Shown here in pieces: positions 2,281 through 21,471 of a stretch of DNA of 21,471 bases. This DNA comes from a virus. The stretch lies in the UHGV virus genome UHGV-0123286. One strand, 5' to 3'. Numbering within the stretch: the first letter of the stretch is position 1; each line of letters begins with the position of its first letter. A model generated the notes under the pieces. It saw nothing but the letters and a program-made list of their open reading frames with translations, ran no database searches and was not told the DNA's origin. A program made the translations under genes and the position numbers.

Positions 2281-2942
2281 GCGCCTTCTCCCTGTACCTG
2301 AATCAATGTGAGATTTCCGCAGAACACTGCGCCGGTATCGATATACATCTGGTTGGCAAATTTGAGCGGTTTCACTGCTGGCGTATGACCAAAGATGAAC
2401 GTGTCCGCGCCTTTAATTTCTTTCACGATCCCGTCTTGTGAGTTGCTGATTCGTTCGCGGTTCCAGATTACCTGCTGATGATCAACTGGCTTTCCAAACT
2501 CGTATTCGTCACAAGGATAATCGGCGTGGCAGATGACATATTTTTTATCTTTGCTCACCAGTTCGATGATTAACGGAAGTTCATCTGCTTTATGGGCAAG
2601 AGCTTTAGCCAGAATTTCTTTGTCGTAATCGAGATTAAAGAACCAGCCACCGCCATTAAGCAGCCAGTGATTGACGTTTCCGCGCTCTGATAAGCCATCA
2701 ATCATCATTTGCTCATGGTTTCCACGTACAGCTCTGAACCAGGGGAATGTGATTAATTCCAGGCATTCAACGTTCTCTGTACCGCGATCGACCAAATCGC
2801 CAACCGAGATAAGCAGGTCTTTTTTGGTGTCGAATCCTATCGTCTCCAGTTTTTTCATCAGGTTCGTGTAGCATCCGTGCAGATCGCCAGCTACCCAAAT
2901 ATTTCGGTATTTGCTGCCATCAATTCTTTCGTAGATATTCAT
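2277..2942 (-). CDS. ninI: NinI serine/threonine protein phosphatase (lambda PPase), 221 aa
   Basis: Translation contains metallophosphatase motifs GDLHG, GDLVDRG, GNHE; matches lambda orf221; start overlaps upstream stop. Confidence 0.9.
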
Positions 2943-3550
2943 GCAGCCTCACTTCTGCTGTTTCGCAGTTTTTTAAGTTTCTGTTGATACTCCGCCTTGA
3001 TGGACCTGCACTCTTCGCCAGTCCAGCGATGGCGGTTATGGTTTGATTCGATTTCGTCTACTGCTTCCTGCCCGATGCGATTAATCAGTTCGACGCGATA
3101 CGGAACGAGATTTCCGCTTTTGTGCTGGTTGCACACCACGCATTGCTTGTGAATATTGCGTTCATCAAATCGGAGTTGAGGTGCCGCAGCAGTTGTCCGG
3201 TAATGTCCGGCATCCCACTGAGCAGACGTGAGCGTTCCGCACGAGATACATGGTAAGTCGCGGTCTCTTTCTCTGATGAAGGCGTTTACGGCTTGTTGGG
3301 CTTGTTTAATCCAGTAACTGCGGGGCTTTAAAGCGAGTTTTCGAATCTTAATTTTATCTTTCTGTTTCTGCTCCTCTCGTCGTCGTTTCTTCTCTGCTGC
3401 TTTTTCCGCTTTTTCGCGTTCTTTGCTTCGTCGTTCGAGTGCTATCTTGGTTCCACACTCTGGAGAGCACCACCACTGATTAGCGAATGCAGGGTGAAAC
3501 CATTCCCGACATTCATCGTTTTTACATCGTCTTCGCGCTGGTTTAGCCAT
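2939..3550 (-). CDS. ninG: NinG (Rap) recombination-associated structure-specific endonuclease, 203 aa
   Basis: Translation [33 protein letters not shown]... matches lambda NinG/orf204; Cys-rich zinc motifs. Confidence 0.85.
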
Positions 3551-4292: not shown

Positions 4293-4432
4293 ACGTCCTC
4301 CTTTTCCTGCGGTAGTGGTAACACCCCTGTTGGTGTTCTTTCACACCGGAGACACCATCGACTCCAGCAAGGTTGATTTGGTCGGAAGCGGTTATCTTCT
4401 TTGCATTCACCGCACCGATAACATCGCATCAT
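4259..4432 (-). CDS. ninD: NinD, 57 aa zinc-ribbon protein
   Basis: Manual translation [34 protein letters not shown]...; ATG overlaps ninC stop (ATGA); 57 aa equals lambda orf57. Confidence 0.7.
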
Positions 4433-5301
4433 GCAGCTTCCCTCCCGAAGTCGAAATCAAGCTGCCCTCCAAATATTTCGCATGACTCAGAACAAGAGCC
4501 GGTATCGAATCTTTTAGCTCGTACCATGTCCTGATACAGGGCTTGATAATCATTTTCTGAATACATTTTCGCGATACCGTCCAGCGACATTCTTCCTCGG
4601 TACATAATCTCCTTTGGCGTTTCCCGATGTCCGTCACGCACATGGGATCCCGTGATGACCTCATTAAAAACACGCTGCAATCCCTCCTCATCTTTGCAGG
4701 CAAGTCCGATTTTTTGCGTTGATTTTTTAATGCAGAATATGCAGTTACCGAGATGTTCCGGTATTTGCAAATCGAATGGTTGTTGCTTCCACCATGCGAG
4801 GATATCTTCCTTCTCAAAGTCTGACAGTTCAGCAAGATATCTGATTCCAGGATTTGGCTTTAGCCGCTTCGGTTCATCAGCTCTGATGCCAATCCACGTG
4901 GTGTAATTCCCTCGCCCGAAATGGTCATCACAGTATTTGGTGAAGGGAACGAGTTTTAATCTGTCAGTGCAGAACGCGCCGCCGACGTATGGAGTGCCAT
5001 ATTTCTTTACCATATCGATAAATGGCTTCAGAACAGGCATTTTCGTCTGAATATCCTTTGGTTCCCATACCTTATAACCATTTGACTGTCCAAGCTCTGG
5101 GTTGATATCAACCTGCAATACAGTGAGCGGTATATCCCAGAACTTCACAACTTCGCGGATAAACCGATATGTCATCGGGTGTTCACAACCTGTATCCATG
5201 AAAACGTAATGCACGTCTTCACCTGCCTGTCGCTTTTGCTCCATTAGCCAGAGCAAATATGCTGACGTCCTGCCACCGGAGAAACTAACGACATTTATCA
5301 T
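4429..5301 (-). CDS. ninC: NinC (PAPS-reductase-like fold), 290 aa; start at internal Met of listed ORF
   Basis: From [24 protein letters not shown]... matches lambda orf290; SGGxxS P-loop-like motif. Confidence 0.85.
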
Positions 5302-5738
5302 GCAGCCCTGTCTCCCCATCTCGCTTTCCACTCCAGAGCCAGTCGCGCTTCGTCTGACCACTTAACGCCACGCTCTGTACCGAATGCCTGTATAAGCTCT
5401 AATAACTCCGCAAATTCGCTTACACGCATCCTGCTGGTTGACTGGCCTATTACCACAAAGCCATTCCCGGCAAGGTTAGGAACAACGTCCTGCTGCTTTA
5501 ATGCTGCGGTAAACACACACTTCCAGCTTTCTGCATCCAGCCAGCGACCATGCCATTCGACCTGACGCGAGACGTCACCAAGGCAAGCCCAAAGTTTCCG
5601 ATTTTGGTCTAAGCTGCGGTTGCGTTCCTGAATGGTTACTACGATTGGTTTGGTTGGGTCTGGAAGGATTTGCTGTACTGCGTGAATAGCGTTTTGCTGA
5701 TGTGCTGGAGATCGAATTTCAAAGGTTAGCTTTTTCAT
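5298..5738 (-). CDS. ninB: NinB recombination mediator (Orf), 146 aa; start at internal Met
   Basis: From MKKLTFEIRSPAHQQNAIHAVQQILPDPTKPIVVTIQERNRSLDQNRK... matches lambda orf146; GGGAGAGGGAAG RBS. Confidence 0.85.
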   Translation of the reverse strand: MKKLTFEIRSPAHQQNAIHAVQQILPDPTKPIVVTIQERNRSLDQNRKLWACLGDVSRQVEWHGRWLDAESWKCVFTAALKQQDVVPNLAGNGFVVIGQSTSRMRVSEFAELLELIQAFGTERGVKWSDEARLALEWKARWGDRAA

Positions 5739-8876: not shown

Positions 8877-9593
8877 ATGGAAAATAAAAAATCACTGACG
8901 ACAGAACAGCTCGAAGACGCTAAGCGGCTTAAGGCTTTGTATGAGTCAAAAAAGAAAGAATTGGGAATAACCCAATACTCAATCGCTGATGAACTGGGTA
9001 TCACCCAAGGAGCGGTAGGGCATTATCTTAATGGCAGAAACGCGCTAAACGTTGAGGTTGCATCTGGTTTTGCACGATTGTTGCAAGTCTCAATTGCTGA
9101 TTTTAGCCAGTCAATTGCTGCCAAGGTTGCAGAACAGGCAGAAAGCCTTAAGAGCGATGCCAACGTAAGGTATGCAGGGGAATACAGAGCAGGAAAGAGG
9201 TATCCGGTGTTAAGCAGTATCCAGGCTGGCTCGTGGTGTGAAGCATGCGAACCATACACCATTAAAGACATAGATGTTTGGCTTGAGTCTGACGCGCATA
9301 TTCAAGGTAATGCGTTCTGGCTTAAAGTGGAAGGTGATTCAATGACGGCACCGGTTGGGTTAAGCATTCCAGAGGGAACATTCGTTCTTTTCGATACCGG
9401 AAGGGAGGCGATCAACGGCAGCTTGGTCATAGCAAAACTTTCTGACTCTAACGAAGCAACATTCAAGAAGCTGATAATCGACGGCGGAAATAAATACCTC
9501 AAGGGACTTAACCCTGCATGGCCTCTCGTGCCAATCAATGGAAACTGCAAGATTATAGGCGTTGCAATTGAGACAAAACTAAGGCTGGTTTGA
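8877..9593 (+). CDS. cI: CI repressor (HTH N-domain plus S24 LexA-like autocleavage domain), 238 aa
   Basis: Overall alignment to lambda CI (LTQEQLEDARRLKAIYE.., C-terminal FWLEVEGNSMTAP.., FKKLI motifs) with divergent recognition helix. Confidence 0.9.
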   Translation: MENKKSLTTEQLEDAKRLKALYESKKKELGITQYSIADELGITQGAVGHYLNGRNALNVEVASGFARLLQVSIADFSQSIAAKVAEQAESLKSDANVRYAGEYRAGKRYPVLSSIQAGSWCEACEPYTIKDIDVWLESDAHIQGNAFWLKVEGDSMTAPVGLSIPEGTFVLFDTGREAINGSLVIAKLSDSNEATFKKLIIDGGNKYLKGLNPAWPLVPINGNCKIIGVAIETKLRLV

Positions 9594-12865: not shown

Positions 12866-13248
12866 TGGCACATTCGATTACTGTAAGACTAAACAAGCCC
12901 GCAAGAGAGTTTCAGGCCGGGGAAAATATCGGATTCAACATCCGTGCTGGCGTTCAGTATTACGATCGCCAGACAAAAAAGAAAGAATGGACAAACTACA
13001 GCGCCGTTGTATTTGCCAAGCCGGGAGCGCAAGCGGATTACTACCGTAGTGTTCTTGTTGAAGGTGGCATTGTAGAAATTACCGGAGAAAACATCAGGGT
13101 TGATGTTTATCAGGGGCAAAATGGTCAATCAATCACTCTTGAATTACTGAATGCAAAGATTGGATTTGCAACTTCAGGAAACAGCCAACAGCAGCAAAGT
13201 AGCAATCATCAAAATCATCCTGAATACGACGATTCAATTCCCTTCTAA
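12865..13248 (+). CDS. SSB-like single-stranded DNA-binding protein, 127 aa
   Basis: C-terminal acidic tail ...EYDDSIPF (bacterial SSB ends DDDIPF); OB-fold-like core EWTNYSAVVFAK...VLVEGGIVEITG; ATG overlaps erf stop (TAATG). Confidence 0.65.
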   Translation: MAHSITVRLNKPAREFQAGENIGFNIRAGVQYYDRQTKKKEWTNYSAVVFAKPGAQADYYRSVLVEGGIVEITGENIRVDVYQGQNGQSITLELLNAKIGFATSGNSQQQQSSNHQNHPEYDDSIPF

Positions 13249-13271
13249 AGTAGCAACATAAGGATTCCATT

Positions 13272-13568
13272 ATGCCAGCGCCTCTGTATGGTGCGGACGA
13301 CGCGCGCCGCTGTTCCGGCAATTCCGTATCGGAGGTGCTGGATAAATTCAGGAAAAACTACAACCGGATAATGTCGCTACCGCAGGAAACGAAAGAGGAA
13401 AAGGAATTTCGCCATTGTATATGGCTTGCAGAGAAAGAAGAACGCGAGCGAATTTACCAGACATCAATCCGACCATTCCGCAAAGCCACATATACCCACT
13501 TCCCTGAATATATCGACCCGCGCCTGCGTAATTACCGCTCACGCTATGGCGCTATCAGTAATGACTGA
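13272..13568 (+). CDS. Hypothetical protein, 98 aa; possibly Abc2-like anti-RecBCD protein (by position after erf, unverified)
   Basis: ORF with AAGGA RBS; assignment rests on P22 gene order and an uncertain recollection of Abc2. Confidence 0.4.
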   Translation: MPAPLYGADDARRCSGNSVSEVLDKFRKNYNRIMSLPQETKEEKEFRHCIWLAEKEERERIYQTSIRPFRKATYTHFPEYIDPRLRNYRSRYGAISND

Positions 13569-13578
13569 GGAATTAACA

Positions 13579-13869
13579 ATGAAAACAATGAAGCTAAACA
13601 TCGACCTCGGAAAATACGTTATTACCGGAACCAAACACGATCTGATTCTAAGCGAAAGAGGAATTATCAAAGAAGGTGAGAATGCAGGGAAAGAAACACT
13701 AAGTCGTATCGGTTATTACAGCAAGTTTGAGCATCTGGTTAAAGAGTTATGCAACCGTGAAATCCTGTTATCTCAGGCGCAGACGCTACAGGATATTCAG
13801 CAGCATATCGAGACTTTAGGTGTGTCACTTAGCATGGCTATTGACCAGTTCGTGGAGAGTAAATCATGA
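13579..13869 (+). CDS. Hypothetical protein, 96 aa
   Basis: ATG 13579 with GAGGA RBS 7 nt upstream; [28 protein letters not shown]... Confidence 0.45.
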
Positions 13870-14030
13870 GAGGACTTGCTTACAATCCCGGCATTCTTCA
13901 GGCAGAAATGATTATTCGCCAACGCGTAAAGCCAATGCCATCGAGAGAGGAATTACTTAAGAGAAATTCTTTTCCATCAGTGAATCAAAACAAATATCTG
14001 AATGCAATGTGGCGGAGTGGGAAGAAATGA
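13866..14030 (+). CDS. Small hypothetical protein, 54 aa
   Basis: ATG overlaps upstream stop (ATGA); manual translation [36 protein letters not shown]... Confidence 0.35.
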
Positions 14031-14425
14031 AACAAATGTCACTAATTGAGATGGATGGTTTTCTGAAAGGTAAATGCATCCCACGAGATTTAAAGGTTAA
14101 CGAAACAAACGCTGAATATCTGGTGCGTAAATTTGCTGAAGCGGAGGCCAAGTGCGCGGCGCTGGCAGCGGAGAATGCGGCGCTTAAACAGTCGGAGAAG
14201 GAATTTAATAACTTCTGTCGTCAGGAGCACTACGGTTGGGAGGACAACTTCACGGAAACCCCAGCCACCGATGCTTTCCTGGCTGAAATTGAACGCAAAG
14301 CAATCCGCAAGTTCATTAACAGCATTGAACACATCCTGCGTGACAAGTTGTCACCGTATGACACCGAAGAGATGCTTGAGGCTATGCGTATTTTTCTGGA
14401 AGAACAGGGAGGTGAGCAAAAATGA
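14027..14425 (+). CDS. Hypothetical protein, 132 aa (coiled-coil-like)
   Basis: ATG overlaps upstream stop (ATGA); [55 protein letters not shown]... Confidence 0.45.
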
Positions 14426-14727
14426 CAATCACAAAACAACGGGTAGAAGAAATCATATCCCGCATTGAAATGTATGGACATGGTGCAGGGTATACCGCAG
14501 ACGAGGTTAATGACCTGGCTGTACTGGCGCTGAATTTATCAAATATCGCAAACCTGAAGCGATACGAGCTTGATATGGATGGTTGTGACTCGTGCGGTCA
14601 GGATTGTGGCGCTGACATGACTGAAGATTCTGATGGCGATTATGTCCTGTTTGATGACGTGGTTAAGTTGTTTGAGCTTGATACATTCGAAAGCCCAGCA
14701 AAGGAGGCAACCAGTGAGCGAAATTAA
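14422..14727 (+). CDS. Hypothetical acidic protein, 101 aa
   Basis: ATG overlaps upstream stop (ATGA); acidic Cys-containing C-terminal half DMDGCDSCGQDCGADMTEDSDGDYVLFDD. Confidence 0.45.
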   Translation: MTITKQRVEEIISRIEMYGHGAGYTADEVNDLAVLALNLSNIANLKRYELDMDGCDSCGQDCGADMTEDSDGDYVLFDDVVKLFELDTFESPAKEATSERN

Positions 14728-15496
14728 TTACCAGGCACTGCGTGAGGCGGCGCAACTGGCAACACAGGGTGAATGGGTCGCATTTATTTCGTCTGGTACT
14801 GGTACATATGCGGTGCATACACCTGGTGATAAACGATGTGAAGACGTTATCAAATGGACCGGCTTTGATGGACAGAAAAATGCAGAGAACAACGCTCGTT
14901 ATATCGCAGCTTTCAACCCAGAAGTAGTGCAGGCGTTGCTGGACGAGCTGGAAGGCAAAGACAAACTGATTGCCGAGCTTGGAAAACAATGCGCCGAATG
15001 GGAGCGAAAAGCATTAAGTAACTTTGAAGAGTGTGCTGCGATGGCTGAACGTATCGAAGAGATGCAGACAAAATCTGCACCAGATTCGTTTGGCATCATC
15101 GGTGAAAATATTCGAACACAGGATAATCGAATAACATCAGACCCTATGTTTTGTGTGTATCAAAAGCGCGAAATCGTTGTTGATGCTGATTATGACTATG
15201 ACCGGATTGTCTGGGTTGATGAAGATGGCAATGAAGCCAATAAACGCCAAAGTCGTCGTCTCGAACTACTTCATGAAAACTTTCGGGAGCCACCAGAAAA
15301 ATGGCGGCGCGTTGCTGTGAAAGATATTGATGAATTCGTGACCTGCTGTTTCACCGAGCAGGGTTGTAAAGACTACCTGGCAGCCAATGGTCACAATCTT
15401 CGCTTGCCATTTATATATGTAAAAAGCGGTTTCAGGAACGCTGAATATATCGGCATAAGAAACTGGCTTGCTGGCATTCGCATCAAAGGAGAATGA
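14714..15496 (+). CDS. Hypothetical protein, about 260 aa (GTG start after AAGGAGG); possibly Ead/Ea22-like early-region family
   Basis: Strong RBS AAGGAGG 6 nt before GTG 14714; family assignment from memory only. Confidence 0.45.
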   Translation: MSEINYQALREAAQLATQGEWVAFISSGTGTYAVHTPGDKRCEDVIKWTGFDGQKNAENNARYIAAFNPEVVQALLDELEGKDKLIAELGKQCAEWERKALSNFEECAAMAERIEEMQTKSAPDSFGIIGENIRTQDNRITSDPMFCVYQKREIVVDADYDYDRIVWVDEDGNEANKRQSRRLELLHENFREPPEKWRRVAVKDIDEFVTCCFTEQGCKDYLAANGHNLRLPFIYVKSGFRNAEYIGIRNWLAGIRIKGE

Positions 15497-15497
15497 G

Positions 15498-16013
15498 ATG
15501 GCGTTAACACACCGCGAACTCTGTCAGATTGCCTACAGGTTCCTTAAGCGCAACGGGTTCAAGGTTTGCTTTCATGACCGCTTTGTTGCTGTAACCAGTA
15601 CTGGAGAACAACCAGATGCTATGGGATTCAGAAATTCAGCATCATGCCTGATAGAGGCGAAGTGTTCTCGTGCTGACTTGTTGGCAGATAGAAAAAAGCG
15701 TTTCCGTAAAAATCCCTCTCTTGGCATGGGGGACTGGCGATTCTTTATTAGTGAGCCGGGAATTATTTCAATTGAGGATTTACCACCTGGCTGGGGATTA
15801 CTTCACGTTGTTAACGGAAGAGTACGGAAAGTACATGGGTGGCCAAAGGGCAATTGCTGTTGGGGTAATCCTGACGATAAGCCATTTACTGGAAATAAGC
15901 AGGTTGAATGCGATTACATGTTATCGGCATTAAGGCGCATGGAGTTGAGAGGGCACCTTAATGAAATATATGACGGTGTAATTGTTAATAAGAAAGAAGG
16001 AAACGCGGCATGA
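15498..16013 (+). CDS. Putative PD-(D/E)xK-fold nuclease-like protein, 171 aa
   Basis: Motif ...GEQPDAMGFRNSASCLIEAKCS... (PD ... ExK spacing typical of restriction-endonuclease-like fold); AAGGAGAA RBS. Confidence 0.45.
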   Translation: MALTHRELCQIAYRFLKRNGFKVCFHDRFVAVTSTGEQPDAMGFRNSASCLIEAKCSRADLLADRKKRFRKNPSLGMGDWRFFISEPGIISIEDLPPGWGLLHVVNGRVRKVHGWPKGNCCWGNPDDKPFTGNKQVECDYMLSALRRMELRGHLNEIYDGVIVNKKEGNAA

Positions 16014-16690
16014 TCACTATTACCAAAGAGCGACTACTGACAATCAAGCAGTGGCGCGAAACATACGGACCTGGTAGCAACGTTGTGCTTCCAGCAGAAG
16101 AAGCGGAAGAGCTGGCACGGATTGCACTGGCATCACTGGCAGTAGTATCGGATGAACGAGCAGCCTATGAATTATTTATGGAGAAGCGTTTCGGGGAATC
16201 TGTAGATCGCCGTAGGGCAAAAAATGGCGATAGAGAATACATGGCATGGGATATGGCGCTTGGCTGGATTATCTGGTGTCACCGCGCCGCCATGCTTCAG
16301 GGTAGCCAACCTGTAAGCCAAACTTACAAGTTGCCAGTTAATACACCTTGCCAAGATGCGCCAGCCCATATCTGGCTACAAACGGCTGGAGTATGGCCAG
16401 AAGATGGCGAGTTAAGCGAATTAACGTGGTGCAGCCACAATCAGCACCATGATGACACGCTATATGTTCGAGCTGACCTTGTGAATGGCAACTATCCGGT
16501 AACTCCGGATAGTTGGATAAGCTGTAGTGAGCGAATGCCGAACGACGCGCAGTGGTGCGTAGTGAACACAGAATACGGGTATTACGCGCAATGCTGGTCT
16601 GAAGGTCAAGGGTGGCTTGGTGATGATATCAGCATCCCTGAATGCGATGTAATCAATTGGATGCCACTACCAGAACCGCCGCAGGGGTGA
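16010..16690 (+). CDS. Hypothetical protein with DUF551-like C-terminal domain, 226 aa
   Basis: ATG overlaps upstream stop (ATGA); C-terminus WISCSERMPNDAQWCVVNTEYGYYAQCWSEGQGWLGDD...WMPLPEPP resembles DUF551 of lambdoid early regions. Confidence 0.5.
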   Translation: MITITKERLLTIKQWRETYGPGSNVVLPAEEAEELARIALASLAVVSDERAAYELFMEKRFGESVDRRRAKNGDREYMAWDMALGWIIWCHRAAMLQGSQPVSQTYKLPVNTPCQDAPAHIWLQTAGVWPEDGELSELTWCSHNQHHDDTLYVRADLVNGNYPVTPDSWISCSERMPNDAQWCVVNTEYGYYAQCWSEGQGWLGDDISIPECDVINWMPLPEPPQG

Positions 16691-16756
16691 AATGATGCTT
16701 GGCCTGAAGTATTTTATGTAATTGGTATTGCTATATTTTTATCTGGGGATAAACGA

Positions 16757-16999
16757 ATGTTCTCTCTGATTCAACGTGGTCAGATATACACCGATAGCGC
16801 TGGCTATCCAGTAAAAATCATTCGTAGTACTGATCACTCAGTATTCTTCAAGAGGATGGATGGCTATCCTGGAAGAGTGTGCATCAGAAAATTCAATAAT
16901 TTATTCGAACACATTGATCACAGAGAATATCACCAGATCCTGGCTGAAACAGAACAGGAGAACCATCTGAAAAAATTACGTGCTATGCAAAGGAGATAA
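16757..16999 (+). CDS. Hypothetical protein, 80 aa
   Basis: ORF with GGGGATAAACGA upstream; no family recognised with confidence. Confidence 0.4.
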   Translation: MFSLIQRGQIYTDSAGYPVKIIRSTDHSVFFKRMDGYPGRVCIRKFNNLFEHIDHREYHQILAETEQENHLKKLRAMQRR

Positions 17000-17079
17000 A
17001 CCGGTAAAGGTGTTCGCGATAAAGGTGAATATCGGCAATGAATAACAATCCTCGAACTCGCGGGGATTTCTTTTATCTG

Positions 17080-17105
17080 AACTCGCTACGGCGAGTTTTG
17101 TTTTA
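17080..17105 (+). terminator. Intrinsic terminator
   Basis: AACTCGC-TACG-GCGAGTT hairpin followed by TTGTTTT. Confidence 0.5.
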
Positions 17106-17117
17106 TGGAGATGATAA

Positions 17118-17285
17118 ATGCACTTCCGAGTCACAGGTGAATGGAATGGAGAGCCATTCGACAGGGTTATCGAAGCAGAGGACATCAACGACTGCTATAA
17201 CCACTGGATGATATGGGCGCAGATAGCGCATGCAGACGTAACCAATATTCGAATTGAAGAACTGAAAGAACACCAAGCCGCCTGA
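17118..17285 (+). CDS. Small hypothetical protein, 55 aa, flanked by two terminators
   Basis: ATG with GGAG 8 nt upstream; MHFRVTGEWNGEPFDRVIEAEDINDCYNHWMIWAQIAHADVTNIRIEELKEHQAA. Confidence 0.4.
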   Translation: MHFRVTGEWNGEPFDRVIEAEDINDCYNHWMIWAQIAHADVTNIRIEELKEHQAA

Positions 17286-17300
17286 TGGCGGTTTTTTCTT
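17277..17300 (+). terminator. Intrinsic terminator upstream of xis
   Basis: CCGCC-TGAT-GGCGG hairpin followed by TTTTTTCTT; stop codon of the 55-aa ORF lies in the loop. Confidence 0.55.
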
Positions 17301-17324
17301 GCGTGTAATTGCGGAGACTTTGCG

Positions 17325-17543
17325 ATGTACTTAACACTTCAGGAGTGGAACGCACGCCAGCGGCGCCCAAGAAGCCTTGAAACAGTTCGTCGATGGGTAC
17401 GCGAGTGCAGGATATTCCCTCCTCCGGTTAAGGATGGAAGAGAGTATCTGTTCCACGAATCAGCGGTAAAGGTTGACTTAAATCGACCAGTAACAGGTAG
17501 CCTTTTGAAGAGGATCAGAAATGGGAAGAAGGCGAAGTCATGA
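17325..17543 (+). CDS. xis: Excisionase Xis, 72 aa
   Basis: Translation MYLTLQEWNARQRRPRSLETVRRWVRECRIFPPPVKDGREYLFHESAVKVDLNRP... is essentially identical to lambda Xis. Confidence 0.95.
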   Translation: MYLTLQEWNARQRRPRSLETVRRWVRECRIFPPPVKDGREYLFHESAVKVDLNRPVTGSLLKRIRNGKKAKS

Positions 17544-18594
17544 GCGCCGGGATTTACCTCCTAACCTTTATATAAGAAACAATGGATATTACTGCTACAG
17601 GGACCCAAGGACGGGTAAAGAGTTTGGATTAGGCCGAGACAGGAGGATAGCAATCACTGAAGCTATACAGGCCAACATTGAGTTACTCTCAGACAGCGGA
17701 CGCAAATCACTGATAGACAGAATTAAAGGCGGTGACGCAATCACTCTTCATGTGTGGCTTGACCGATATGAAAGAATCCTCACCGAAAGGGGGATCAGGC
17801 CGAAAACTCTACTCGACTACGCCAGCAAAATCAGGGCAATCCGAAGAAAATTGCCGGACAAACCGCTCACTGACATATCAACGAAAGAAGTGGCAGCAAT
17901 GCTAAACACCTACGTAGCAGAAGGTAAAGCAGCTTCCGCAAAATTAATCAGGTCAACCCTTGTTGACGTTTTTCGTGAAGCAATAGCCGAGGGGCATGTG
18001 GCAACGAATCCGGTAACAGCAACCCGTACAGCAAAGTCAGAAGTAAGGCGCTCAAGGCTGACAGCTAATGAGTATGTCGAGATTTACCATGCAGCCGAAC
18101 CTCTCCCTATCTGGCTAAGGCTGGCGATGGATTTGGCCGTCGTTACAGGGCAGAGAGTCGGCGATTTGTGCAGAATGAAATGGTCAGACATAAACGACAA
18201 CCATCTTCACATTGAACAGAGTAAAACAGGGGCTAAACTCGCCATTCCGCTAATGCTAACGATTGACGCGCTCAATATCTCATTGGCTGATACACTACAG
18301 AAATGCAGGGATGCCAGCAGCAGTGAAACTATAATCGCATCAAAGCATCACGATCCGCTTTCCCCGAAAACAGTATCAAAGTATTTTACAAAGGCGAGAA
18401 ATGCATCTGGACTCTCATTTGATGGAAACCCGCCAACATTCCATGAACTGCGTAGCCTGTCAGCGAGGCTATACCGGAACCAGATTGGCGATAAGTTTGC
18501 TCAACGTCTTCTCGGGCATAAATCAGATTCAATGGCGGCGCGGTATAGGGACAGCCGTGGACGGGAATGGGACAAAATTGAAATCGACAAATGA
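17521..18594 (+). CDS. int: Tyrosine integrase (lambda/HK022 Int family), 357 aa
   Basis: Translation MGRRRSHERRDLPPNLYIRNNGYYCYRDPRTGKEFGLGRDRRIAITEAIQANIEL... near-identical to lambda Int N-terminus; catalytic region HELRSLSARLY...HKSD..AARY; start overlaps xis. Confidence 0.95.
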   Translation: MGRRRSHERRDLPPNLYIRNNGYYCYRDPRTGKEFGLGRDRRIAITEAIQANIELLSDSGRKSLIDRIKGGDAITLHVWLDRYERILTERGIRPKTLLDYASKIRAIRRKLPDKPLTDISTKEVAAMLNTYVAEGKAASAKLIRSTLVDVFREAIAEGHVATNPVTATRTAKSEVRRSRLTANEYVEIYHAAEPLPIWLRLAMDLAVVTGQRVGDLCRMKWSDINDNHLHIEQSKTGAKLAIPLMLTIDALNISLADTLQKCRDASSSETIIASKHHDPLSPKTVSKYFTKARNASGLSFDGNPPTFHELRSLSARLYRNQIGDKFAQRLLGHKSDSMAARYRDSRGREWDKIEIDK

Positions 18595-18688
18595 TTTTAT
18601 TTTGACTAATAATGACCTGCTTACATTAATTCATTGATAATAAAAGAGATTTCAAATATACAACTTATTCACCTAAAGTGCACCGACC
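18595..18688. other. attL: P' arm with arm-type Int sites (18596..18620) and candidate core/overlap region (about 18661..18685)
   Basis: Minus-strand reads CAGGTCATTAT-TAGTCAAAAT-AAAATCATT, close to lambda P'1-P'3 arm sites; core candidate GCACTTTAGGTGAATAAG resembles the HK022-type core as I recall it. Confidence 0.6.
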
Positions 18689-21421
18689 GTGAATTTAACC
18701 CTGACCCGAAGACTCTGGATGGGCTTTGCCCTGATGGCGCTGTTAACCCTGACCAGTACCCTGGTGGGATGGTACAACCTGCGCTTTATCAGCCAGGTGG
18801 AAAAAGACAACACTCAGGCATTGATTCCTACCATGAATATGGCGCGCCAGTTGAGCGAAGCCAGCGCCTGGGAACTTTTCGCCGCGCAGAACCTGACCAG
18901 TGCCGATAACGAAAAGATGTGGCAGGCGCAGGGGCGAATGCTCACCGCACAAAGCCTGAAGATTAATGCGTTGCTGCAAGCGTTACGGGAACAAGGTTTT
19001 GACACCACCGCTATTGAACAACAGGAGCAGGAGATCTCCCGTTCGTTACGTCAGCAAGGGGAACTGGTGGGGCAGCGTTTGCAACTTCGCCAGCAACAAC
19101 AGCAACTCAGTCAGCAGATAGTCGCCGCCGCCGATGAAATCGCACGCCTGGCGCAAGGTCAGGCGAATAATGCGGCAACCTCCGCCGGAGCGACCCAGGC
19201 CGGGATTTACGATTTGATCGAACAACATCAGCGTCAAGCCGCAGAAAGTGCACTCGATCGGCTGATTGATATCGATCTTGAGTATGTTAACCAGATGAAT
19301 GAACTGCGCCTTAGCGCCCTGCGGGTGCAGCAAATGGTGATGAATCTGGGGCTGGAACAGATCCAGAAAAATGCGCCAACGCTGGAAAAGCAGCTCAATA
19401 ATGCGGTGAAAATTCTGCAACGTCGGCAAATACGCATTGAAGATCCGGGTGTTCGTACTCAGGTAGCAACAACGTTAACTACCGTTAGCCAATATAGCGA
19501 TTTGCTGGCGCTGTATCAGCAGGACAGTGAAATCAGCAATCACCTGCAAACTCTCGCCCAAAATAACATCGCCCAATTCGCGCAGTTTAGTAGCGAAGTC
19601 AGTCAGCTGGTCGACACCATTGAGCTGCGTAATCAGCACGGGCTGGCACATCTGGAAAAAGCCAGTGCACGCGGGCAATACAGCCTGTTATTGCTGGGAT
19701 TAGTTTCTCTTTGCGCACTGATTCTGATCCTCTGGCGCGTGGTTTATCGCTCAGTCACGCGCCCTCTTGCAGAACAAACGCAGGCGCTGCAACGCTTGCT
19801 GGATGGTGATATCGACTCCCCTTTCCCGGAAACCGCTGGCGTACGGGAACTGGATACCATCGGGCGGCTGATGGATGCGTTTCGCAGCAGTGTTCATGCA
19901 CTGAATCGCCACCGCGAACAGCTGGCGGCGCAGGTCAAAGCGCGTACAGCTGAATTGCAGGAACTGGTGATAGAACACCGACAGGCACGGGCGGAAGCAG
20001 AAAAAGCCAGCCAGGCAAAATCGGCGTTTCTGGCGGCGATGAGCCATGAGATCCGCACACCGCTGTACGGTATTCTCGGCACCGCACAGCTGCTGGCAGA
20101 TAACCCCGCACTTAACGCCCAGCGCGATGATTTGCGGGCGATTACCGACTCTGGTGAATCGTTGCTGACCATCCTCAACGATATTCTCGATTATTCGGCT
20201 ATCGAAGCAGGCGGCAAGAATGTTTCGGTCAGCGATGAACCCTTTGAACCGCGCCCGCTGCTGGAAAGTACCCTGCAATTAATGAACGGAAGGGTGAAAG
20301 GTCGCCCGATTCGCCTGGCAACAGAAATTGCCGACGATGTACCGACTGCGTTAATGGGCGATCCGCGGCGTATTCGTCAGGTCATTACCAACCTGTTGAG
20401 CAACGCCCTGCGTTTCACCGACGAAGGGCACATTATTCTGCGTAGTCGCACTGATGGCGAACAATGGCTGGTCGAAGTGGAAGACAGCGGCTGCGGTATT
20501 GATCCCGCGAAACTGGCTGAAATCTTCCAGCCATTTGTTCAGGTTAGCGGCAAACGCGGCGGCACCGGGCTGGGGCTGACTATCAGTAGCCGTCTGGCCC
20601 AGGCGATGGGCGGCGAATTGAGCGCCACCAGCACGCCGGAGGTTGGAAGCTGTTTTTGTTTACGCGTGCCGTTACGTGTTGCCACTGCACCCGTGCCAAA
20701 AACAGTCAATCAGGCGGTGCGTCTGGACGGTTTACGTTTGCTGTTAATTGAAGATAACCCGCTAACCCAGCGGATTACCGTTGAGATGTTGAACAGCAGT
20801 GGGGCGCAGGTCGTTGCCGTAGGAAATGCCGCGCAGGCTTTAGAGACACTGCAAAATAGTGAACCGTTTGCTGCCGCACTGGTGGATTTTGATCTACCGG
20901 ATATCGACGGCATTACGCTTGCCCGACAACTGGCACAGCAATATCCGTCGCTGGTTTTGATTGGCTTTAGCGCCCATGTCATTGACGAAACACTGCGACA
21001 GCGTACCAGTTCGCTATTTCGCGGGATTATCCCTAAACCGGTGCCGCGTGAAGTGCTCGGTCAATTACTGGCGCACTATCTCCAACTGCAAGTCAATAAC
21101 GATCAACCACTGGATGTATCGCAACTCAATGAAGATGCTCATTTAATGGGGGCGGAGAAGATCCACGAATGGCTGATATTATTTAAACAACATGCCCTGC
21201 CGCTTCTCGATGAAATCGACATTGCCCGCGCCAGTCAGGATAACGAGAAAATAAAGCGTGCCGCACATCAGCTAAAAAGCAGTTGCTCGAGTCTGGGAAT
21301 GCGTAGCGCCAGCCAGCAATGCGCACAACTGGAGCAGCAGCCATTATCTGCCCCCCTTCCACACGAAGAAATTACACGCAGTGTTGCCGCTCTGGAAGCA
21401 TGGTTAATAAGAAAGACCTGA
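18689..21421 (+). CDS. torS: Hybrid sensor histidine kinase TorS (TMAO respiration two-component system), 910 aa
   Basis: Translation [41 protein letters not shown]... with H-box SHEIRTP, receiver domain and C-terminal HPt matches E. coli TorS; GTG start. Confidence 0.95.
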
Positions 21422-21471
21422 ACGCGATTTGAATCAATATCAGCCAGTTAAGAACAACTAGAATAGTGGCA

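Follow-up and report, generated by a model that had tools for sequence, protein, structure and literature searches.

The 171-amino-acid protein described here is, with a probability that we put at roughly 55%, a small, probably oligomeric, divalent-metal-dependent PD-(D/E)xK DNA endonuclease acting in phage replication, recombination or repair. Its gene lies in an E. coli lambdoid prophage covered by the window, by which we mean the whole 21,471-nt stretch of DNA that was analysed. It would be structure- or lesion-specific. Sequence and model comparisons place the protein in a phage family that forms a remote sister group to bacterial MmcB-like/DUF1052 proteins and to archaeal Hjc, MmcB being the closest relation. 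A nuclease directed at the host or its defences, a homing endonuclease and a modulator of lysis-lysogeny were considered as alternatives and were judged less likely.

The features of the window that bear on this gene are collected in Table 1. Start and stop codons read from the sequence agreed exactly with the coordinates that the initial annotation had given for the 171-aa ORF, and an alternative TTG start at 15468 was unsupported by homologs, the commonest cluster of which (P0002, 1,363 member sequences) is 171 aa long. Both motifs named in that annotation, GEQPD and IEAKCS, were present, but the 13-residue spacer given between them was not, as 11 residues lie between D40 and I52, and the figure of 13 is reached by counting from D40 to E53. 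The described overlap with a following DUF551-like gene was borne out by a shared ATGA at 16010-16013 and by the Pfam match of that gene's product. On the other side, the TGA of the Ea22-like ORF (15494-15496) ends 1 nt before the nuclease ATG. Judged from these abutting or overlapping stop and start codons, the nuclease gene is translationally coupled to the Ea22-like gene on its 5' side and to the DUF551 gene on its 3' side.

Table 1. Features of the window around the nuclease-fold gene, with the evidence for each where given.
Feature	Position	Strand	Evidence or detail
NinG/Rap, nin region	2939..3550	- (other strand)	
cI	8877-9593	+	
N-like gene	starts 10347	+	
gp17 superinfection exclusion gene	starts 11291	+	
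erf	starts 12230	+	
abc2	starts 13272	+	
Ea22-like N-terminal module plus C-terminal domain matching phrog_3205	14633..15496	+	Pfam Ead_Ea22 E = 2.1e-25, residues 29-143; PHROGs
Shine-Dalgarno-like AAAGGAG, 6 nt 5' of the nuclease-gene ATG	15485..15491	+	sequence
Gene of the 171-aa MmcB-like/Hjc-like PD-(D/E)xK nuclease-fold protein	15498..16013	+	ATG 15498, TGA 16011-16013
E37-Q-P-D40 codons, 'PD' half of the putative active site	15606..15617	+	conservation; alignment with SPO1766
GEQPD, nuclease residues 36-40	D40 codon GAT 15615-15617	+	sequence
IEAKCS, nuclease residues 52-57	E53 codon GAG 15654-15656; K55 codon AAG 15660-15662	+	sequence
E53-A-K55-C-S57-R58-A-D60-L-L-A-D64-R-K-K67-R-F-R70 codons, (D/E)xK half and the conserved helix after it	15654..15707	+	conservation
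Protein with C-terminal DUF551	16010..16690	+	Pfam DUF551 E = 6.7e-11, residues 168-225
DUF4222 protein gene	starts 16757	+	
xis	starts 17325	+	
int	17521-18594	+	last prophage gene
Host torS, right end of the window	18600-21471	+	99.9% identity to E. coli chromosomes

The prophage combines an HK97/HK446-like early region with P22-like recombination genes and is integrated beside torS, on the int side; the window contains no tRNA gene. No promoter-like or terminator-like site was found on the + strand between 13200 and 17047, and the nuclease gene therefore belongs to the N-antiterminated early-left (P_L) transcript. It lies between erf/abc2 and xis/int, a position called the exo-xis region in the lambda literature. 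Further along, a cluster of three terminator-like hairpins (17047-17294, + strand) sits within the ~325 nt that separate xis from the DUF4222 gene; no other terminator-like site was seen on that strand over 13200-17900, and the cluster may mark a regulated boundary before xis-int.

The gene 5' of the nuclease gene showed features of its own. The ATG listed for the Ea22-like ORF overlaps the preceding ORF (14422..14727, + strand) by 95 nt, and the true start is therefore probably internal, at a GTG near 14714. The C-terminal domain of the Ea22-like ORF is unrelated to its N-terminal module. In Salmonella enterica, proteins P0095, P0096, P0097, P0101 and P0105 (240-252 aa) carry a short Ea22-type N-terminus (KQALREAAEK...), a Q-rich repeat linker and the nuclease domain. 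Sequence comparison suggests that ea22-like genes have a recombination joint at their conserved 5' end, where C-terminal modules are swapped.

The bare motif is not above chance. Of the window's 45 reading frames that are 100 aa or longer, 15 contain the pattern D-x(9-20)-[DE]-x-K. It also turned up in 47% of shuffled versions of the protein, and the PD version in 3.9% of them. The candidate is raised above chance by its conservation, its predicted fold and the purifying selection acting on it. Compared with homologs at 41-76% amino-acid identity, pN was 0.19-0.45 against a pS of 0.71-0.90, with synonymous sites saturated, and codon position 3 showed roughly 1.3-3.5 times the differences of position 1 or 2 in the same comparisons. 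The nuclease-fold gene is clearly real and under purifying selection.

Residue conservation was followed in 45 close homologs and in the 147 best 50%-identity cluster representatives, which are 32-76% identical to the query. H5, C9, E37, D40, E53, K55, D60, D64, K67, R70, G76, G78, W80 and R81, among others, were invariant in the close homologs. In the representatives, the first half of the putative active site was kept almost throughout (E37 in 143/145, P39 in 136/145 and D40 in 144/145), as were E53 and K55 of the second half, each in 146/147. D60, K67 and R70 were kept in 147 of 147, D64 and R81 in 147 of 148, H5 in 130 of 134 and E137 in 133 of 142, and all these residues were retained by nine homologs (205-262 aa) of unrelated virulent and temperate phages. 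Of these, H5, E37, K67, R70, R81 and E137 count as specific to the phage family. The initial annotation had held that its nuclease reading would fail if the motif residues were not conserved among homologs; D40, E53 and K55 were kept in at least 99% of the 147 representatives and were invariant in the 45 close homologs.

An AlphaFold2 run with a 45-sequence alignment gave a model with a mean pLDDT of 90.2 and a pTM of 0.83, in which the elements follow in the order alpha(5-18), beta(23-26), beta(41-45), beta(48-54), alpha(58-71), beta(80-85), a hairpin (100-113) and three helices. [quoted passage not shown] Strand 2 of this canonical core carries D40 and strand 3 carries E53-x-K55, in keeping with the superfamily pattern of a conserved acidic residue where strand 2 begins and (D/E)-x-K in strand 3. 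A Foldseek search of the PDB returned 3DNX at the top (E = 4.8e-6), followed by the R2 RLE domain, AF1548, Bax1, R.BspD6I, Hjc, HincII, XisH and NucS, and the structural neighbours above noise were PD-(D/E)xK nucleases. In BFVD, Foldseek revealed phage proteins that grade continuously from close relatives of uncharacterised function into ones labelled MmcB-like. Taken together, the predicted fold and the conserved motif residues supported the interpretation of the protein as a PD-(D/E)xK nuclease, with nuclease activity predicted.

On this basis of alignment and model, D40, E53 and K55, possibly together with E37, would bind Mg2+ and cleave the DNA phosphodiester. The substrate would be an intermediate of replication or recombination that is branched or damaged, and not a specific sequence, because the closest families are specific for structures or lesions (Hjc acts on four-way junctions and MmcB probably on crosslink damage), because no separate domain for DNA recognition is present in the protein, and because homologs sit in replication and recombination modules. 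Expressed early, the enzyme could plausibly clear or process lesions or stalled forks while replication of the phage DNA is just beginning, from which a prophage would profit when its induction follows DNA damage, for example by mitomycin C. A role as the sole junction resolvase of the phage was rejected, since the phage also encodes the junction endonuclease NinG/Rap, with which such a role would be redundant.

A nuclease expressed from the early-left operon might instead be aimed at the host or at competitors, degrading or nicking host DNA, countering defence or excluding other phages in the manner of gam, abc2, ral and sieB-type genes. We consider this unlikely, as the query had no PADLOC match, the protein is without a specificity or sensor domain, and the homologs nearest to it act in repair or on junctions. 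Furthermore, since a P_L operon gene is presumably silent in the lysogen, an exclusion role in particular is disfavoured, and the homologs of virulent phages lie within replication modules, coupled to primase, and not in host-takeover clusters.

This coupling was seen in four virulent phages, in which a homolog lies directly 5' of a DNA primase gene (L001:4863-6607; L002:4980-6661; L089:3480-5152; L087:3480-5239). The order is helicase, homolog, primase in Vibrio KF6, and homolog, primase in Salmonella Kuttervirus KE28, in the 157-kb Klebsiella phage phi1_146021 and in Vibrio D528; the stop and start codons of homolog and primase overlap at three of the four junctions. By BLAST, the KF6 primase had no similarity to the primases of KE28, phi1_146021 and D528, and the pairing therefore arose or persisted with two primase types that are unlinked by BLAST, and is not one inherited module. 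Among the Kuttervirus, the Klebsiella phage and the more distant D528, the nucleases are 38-71% identical and the primases 45-84% identical, with the nuclease gene in the same position, which indicates that the pair was vertically co-inherited there and did not arrive by sporadic invasion.

Other neighbourhoods were more varied. In Acinetobacter HFM1, a helicase gene and a small ORF precede the homolog, whose immediate 3' neighbour encodes a VRR-NUC protein, and the proteins encoded 3' of the homolog in the Vibrio phages MS01 and sm030 had no Pfam domain. In Pseudomonas Jeremy, the homolog follows genes for a PAPS reductase and a DNA methyltransferase (L003:2017-2757); the present window holds a NinC-type gene with a PAPS-reductase domain in its nin region (4429-5361, - strand), and this could be either a coincidence or a link to DNA modification. 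Escherichia EC.W1-9 carries a 98.8%-identical copy 3' of its replication genes, in the order 254-aa hypothetical protein, homolog, 'ea22'. When neighbours were clustered at 70 viral-contig loci, mostly of temperate phages, they were mosaic and no fixed partner gene emerged, which counts against the repair or replication endonuclease that we favour. Recurrent neighbours at these loci were a module related to the N-terminal part of the DUF551 protein (22), Ea22-like genes (10), NinG (6) and NinB (4). Domain fusions (to TniB, dATP/dGTP pyrophosphohydrolase, DUF551 and the Ea22 N-terminus) were set aside as uninformative on mechanism, since they mostly mirror adjacent phage genes.

The gene was found in 931 of 5,426 complete E. 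coli genomes (17%, Stx-converting prophages included) and in 641 phage records, many of Ackermannviridae type. An exhaustive profile search collected 3,294 50%-identity cluster representatives at E <= 1e-3 and 2,514 at E <= 1e-10. The presence of up to 6 copies per E. coli genome, the variable gene context and the position beside essential replication genes in virulent phages might also suit a free-standing homing endonuclease, that is, a selfish gene that settles beside conserved genes, that of primase for example, and propagates by cleaving the alleles from which it is missing; PD-(D/E)xK homing endonucleases exist. This explanation appears quite improbable to us in view of the strong purifying selection and the conservation of the family across genera, the translational coupling within operons and the lack of a DNA-recognition extension in the protein. 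The constant site 5' of primase in the Kuttervirus, the Klebsiella phage and D528 likewise points to vertical co-inheritance.

The recurrent primase coupling in virulent phages is the most interesting loose end of this analysis. The family might be a hitherto unrecognised accessory factor of phage replication, coupled to primase, that processes forks or lesions, including a phage counterpart of MmcB crosslink repair, and that is conserved from lambdoid prophages to Ackermannviridae and Vibrio siphoviruses. We offer this as a speculative extension that is more doubtful than probable; if it is true, prophages induced by mitomycin C or SOS could replicate their own damaged genomes.

The initial annotation had also stated that a nuclease at this position is not part of the canonical lambda set, and this was correct: lambda had no homolog, with a best profile E of 2.5 against 3.6e-65 for the window control. 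The gene is common in lambdoid phages generally and absent from lambda itself; Phi24B has no nuclease gene either. This absence bears on the possibility that the protein is a developmental modulator like ea22, orf60a, orf61, orf63 and ea8.5, influencing lysis-lysogeny or induction by binding DNA or host proteins, with catalysis secondary or absent. Such a role would fit the exo-xis-equivalent position between Ea22-like and DUF551 modules, the Salmonella prophage ORFs (P0095, P0105) that fuse an Ea22-type N-terminus to the nuclease domain, and the published modulating effects of the exo-xis region on lysogeny and induction (PMC7093339, PMC3824215, PMC10789677). In addition, the fact that other lambdoid exo-xis genes affect the lysis-lysogeny decision and not DNA repair (PMC7093339, PMC3824215) speaks against a repair or replication endonuclease. 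However, lambda and Phi24B are the phages that were studied, and the published exo-xis phenotypes therefore do not involve the nuclease; the present protein is not covered in the exo-xis literature, and the paper modelling exo-xis proteins mentions no nuclease. Near-invariant D, E and K residues are unexpected in a non-catalytic binder, and the homologs belong to the core gene set of strictly virulent phages, for which a lysogeny decision does not arise. We therefore hold modulation to be a long shot and retain an endonuclease of phage DNA metabolism as the preferred reading.

In public databases, the members are mostly annotated as 'hypothetical protein' and occasionally as 'DNA repair protein', 'spo1766 structure' or 'adenylosuccinate synthase'. 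The last label was noted for the homologs of Pseudomonas Jeremy (L003:3992-4633), Vibrio MS01 (L088:3432-4220) and Acinetobacter HFM1 (L004:4007-4666). These homologs had no adenylosuccinate synthase Pfam domain and matched the nuclease-family HMM at E = 1e-43 to 1e-46, so that the label looks like a propagated misannotation. The family is sizeable and unnamed and has no Pfam, NCBIfam or PADLOC model, and a new Pfam entry among the PD-(D/E)xK families would be justified. Its placement as an MmcB/Hjc-related nuclease with an intact predicted active site provides a usable annotation and a biochemical hypothesis. Nothing is overturned by this, since small PD-(D/E)xK nucleases are expected in phage early regions.

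Searched as a single sequence, the query matched nothing in Pfam, NCBIfam or PADLOC, and a phmmer run over PDB sequences returned noise only. The query matched PHROGs 9263 and 631, both families without an assigned function, and had one weak 'DNA repair protein' match. A profile of 66 family sequences (A2) found 3DNX at E = 2.7e-5 and Hjc at E = 0.15. Individual members among these 66 showed sub-threshold Pfam matches to Hjc (38/66, best E = 1.3e-4) and to MmcB-like (18/66, best E = 2.9e-4), and others matched AHJR-like, UPF0102 and VRR_NUC at sub-threshold level. When the A2 profile was aligned by hhalign with 32 PF06319 proteins, the match extended over 131 columns with a probability of 97.8% and E = 8.3e-13. 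In this register D40 corresponds to D39 (that of SPO1766), R81 to R76 and R146-R147 to R133-R134, and E53, K55, S57-R58, D60, D64 and G100-L101 are also aligned; the alignments have the stretch ExKxSRxDFxxD in common between the nuclease-fold protein and SPO1766/MmcB-like proteins.

The nearest known system is thus that of the MmcB-like proteins. DUF1052 corresponds to PF06319 and to the structure 3DNX (COG5321; SPO1766). Its kinship with the archaeal junction resolvases (PMC1189080, PMC3424549) was first drawn in PMC1189080, and its distribution is mainly alpha-proteobacterial (PMC3424549, PMC9578287). In Caulobacter crescentus, MmcB is a PD-(D/E)xK endonuclease that is induced in the SOS response and gives protection from mitomycin C and cisplatin (PMC9578287); the same article, citing Lopes-Kulishev 2015 and Price 2018, describes a proposed partnership with translesion polymerases in interstrand-crosslink repair. 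Homology between the phage family and these proteins can be detected along their entire length, and they have the fold in common. At the level of Pfam the two remain apart: the PF06319 model scored 113.6 bits on a fragment of 3DNX used as a positive control, whereas the query gave no match at E <= 1 and the nine virulent-phage homologs gave none. SPO1766 scored 25.9 bits against the phage-family HMM, compared with 127-213 bits for phage members. The phage family has E37-x-P-D40, with a family-specific E37, where MmcB has L-R-V-D; it carries a 7-residue insertion bearing K67 and R70, near-invariant H5 and E137 and an invariant W99. MmcB-like genes are chromosomal, SOS-regulated and alpha-proteobacterial, whereas the phage genes lie in early or replication operons, the present one in the P_L operon of an E. 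coli prophage. Because of the E-x-P-D motif, the insertion, the conserved H5, W99 and E137 and the HMM and Pfam scores, the phage family is, by sequence, a distinct sister family of MmcB-like/DUF1052 that falls outside PF06319 by the Pfam criterion.

Hjc is the more remote relative. The match of the phage protein to Hjc (1HH1, 1OB8) was much weaker than that to 3DNX; against the Hjc model (PF01870, gathering threshold 21.1 bits) the query gave no match, and two long homologs scored 16.9 and 17.7 bits. The extra beta-hairpin (100-113) and the three C-terminal helices of the phage protein are absent from Hjc. Helix 1 of Hjc has a catalytic Glu, and at the position of that residue the phage protein carries the near-invariant H5. 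The VRR-NUC proteins and other small phage PD-(D/E)xK nucleases share the fold class and likewise occur in phage replication and recombination modules; the Pfam match combined with close structural similarity that would mark a VRR-NUC protein (PF08774) was not found for the query. It is therefore beside MmcB that the phage family is best placed, and MmcB thereby gains a large set of phage relatives for study.
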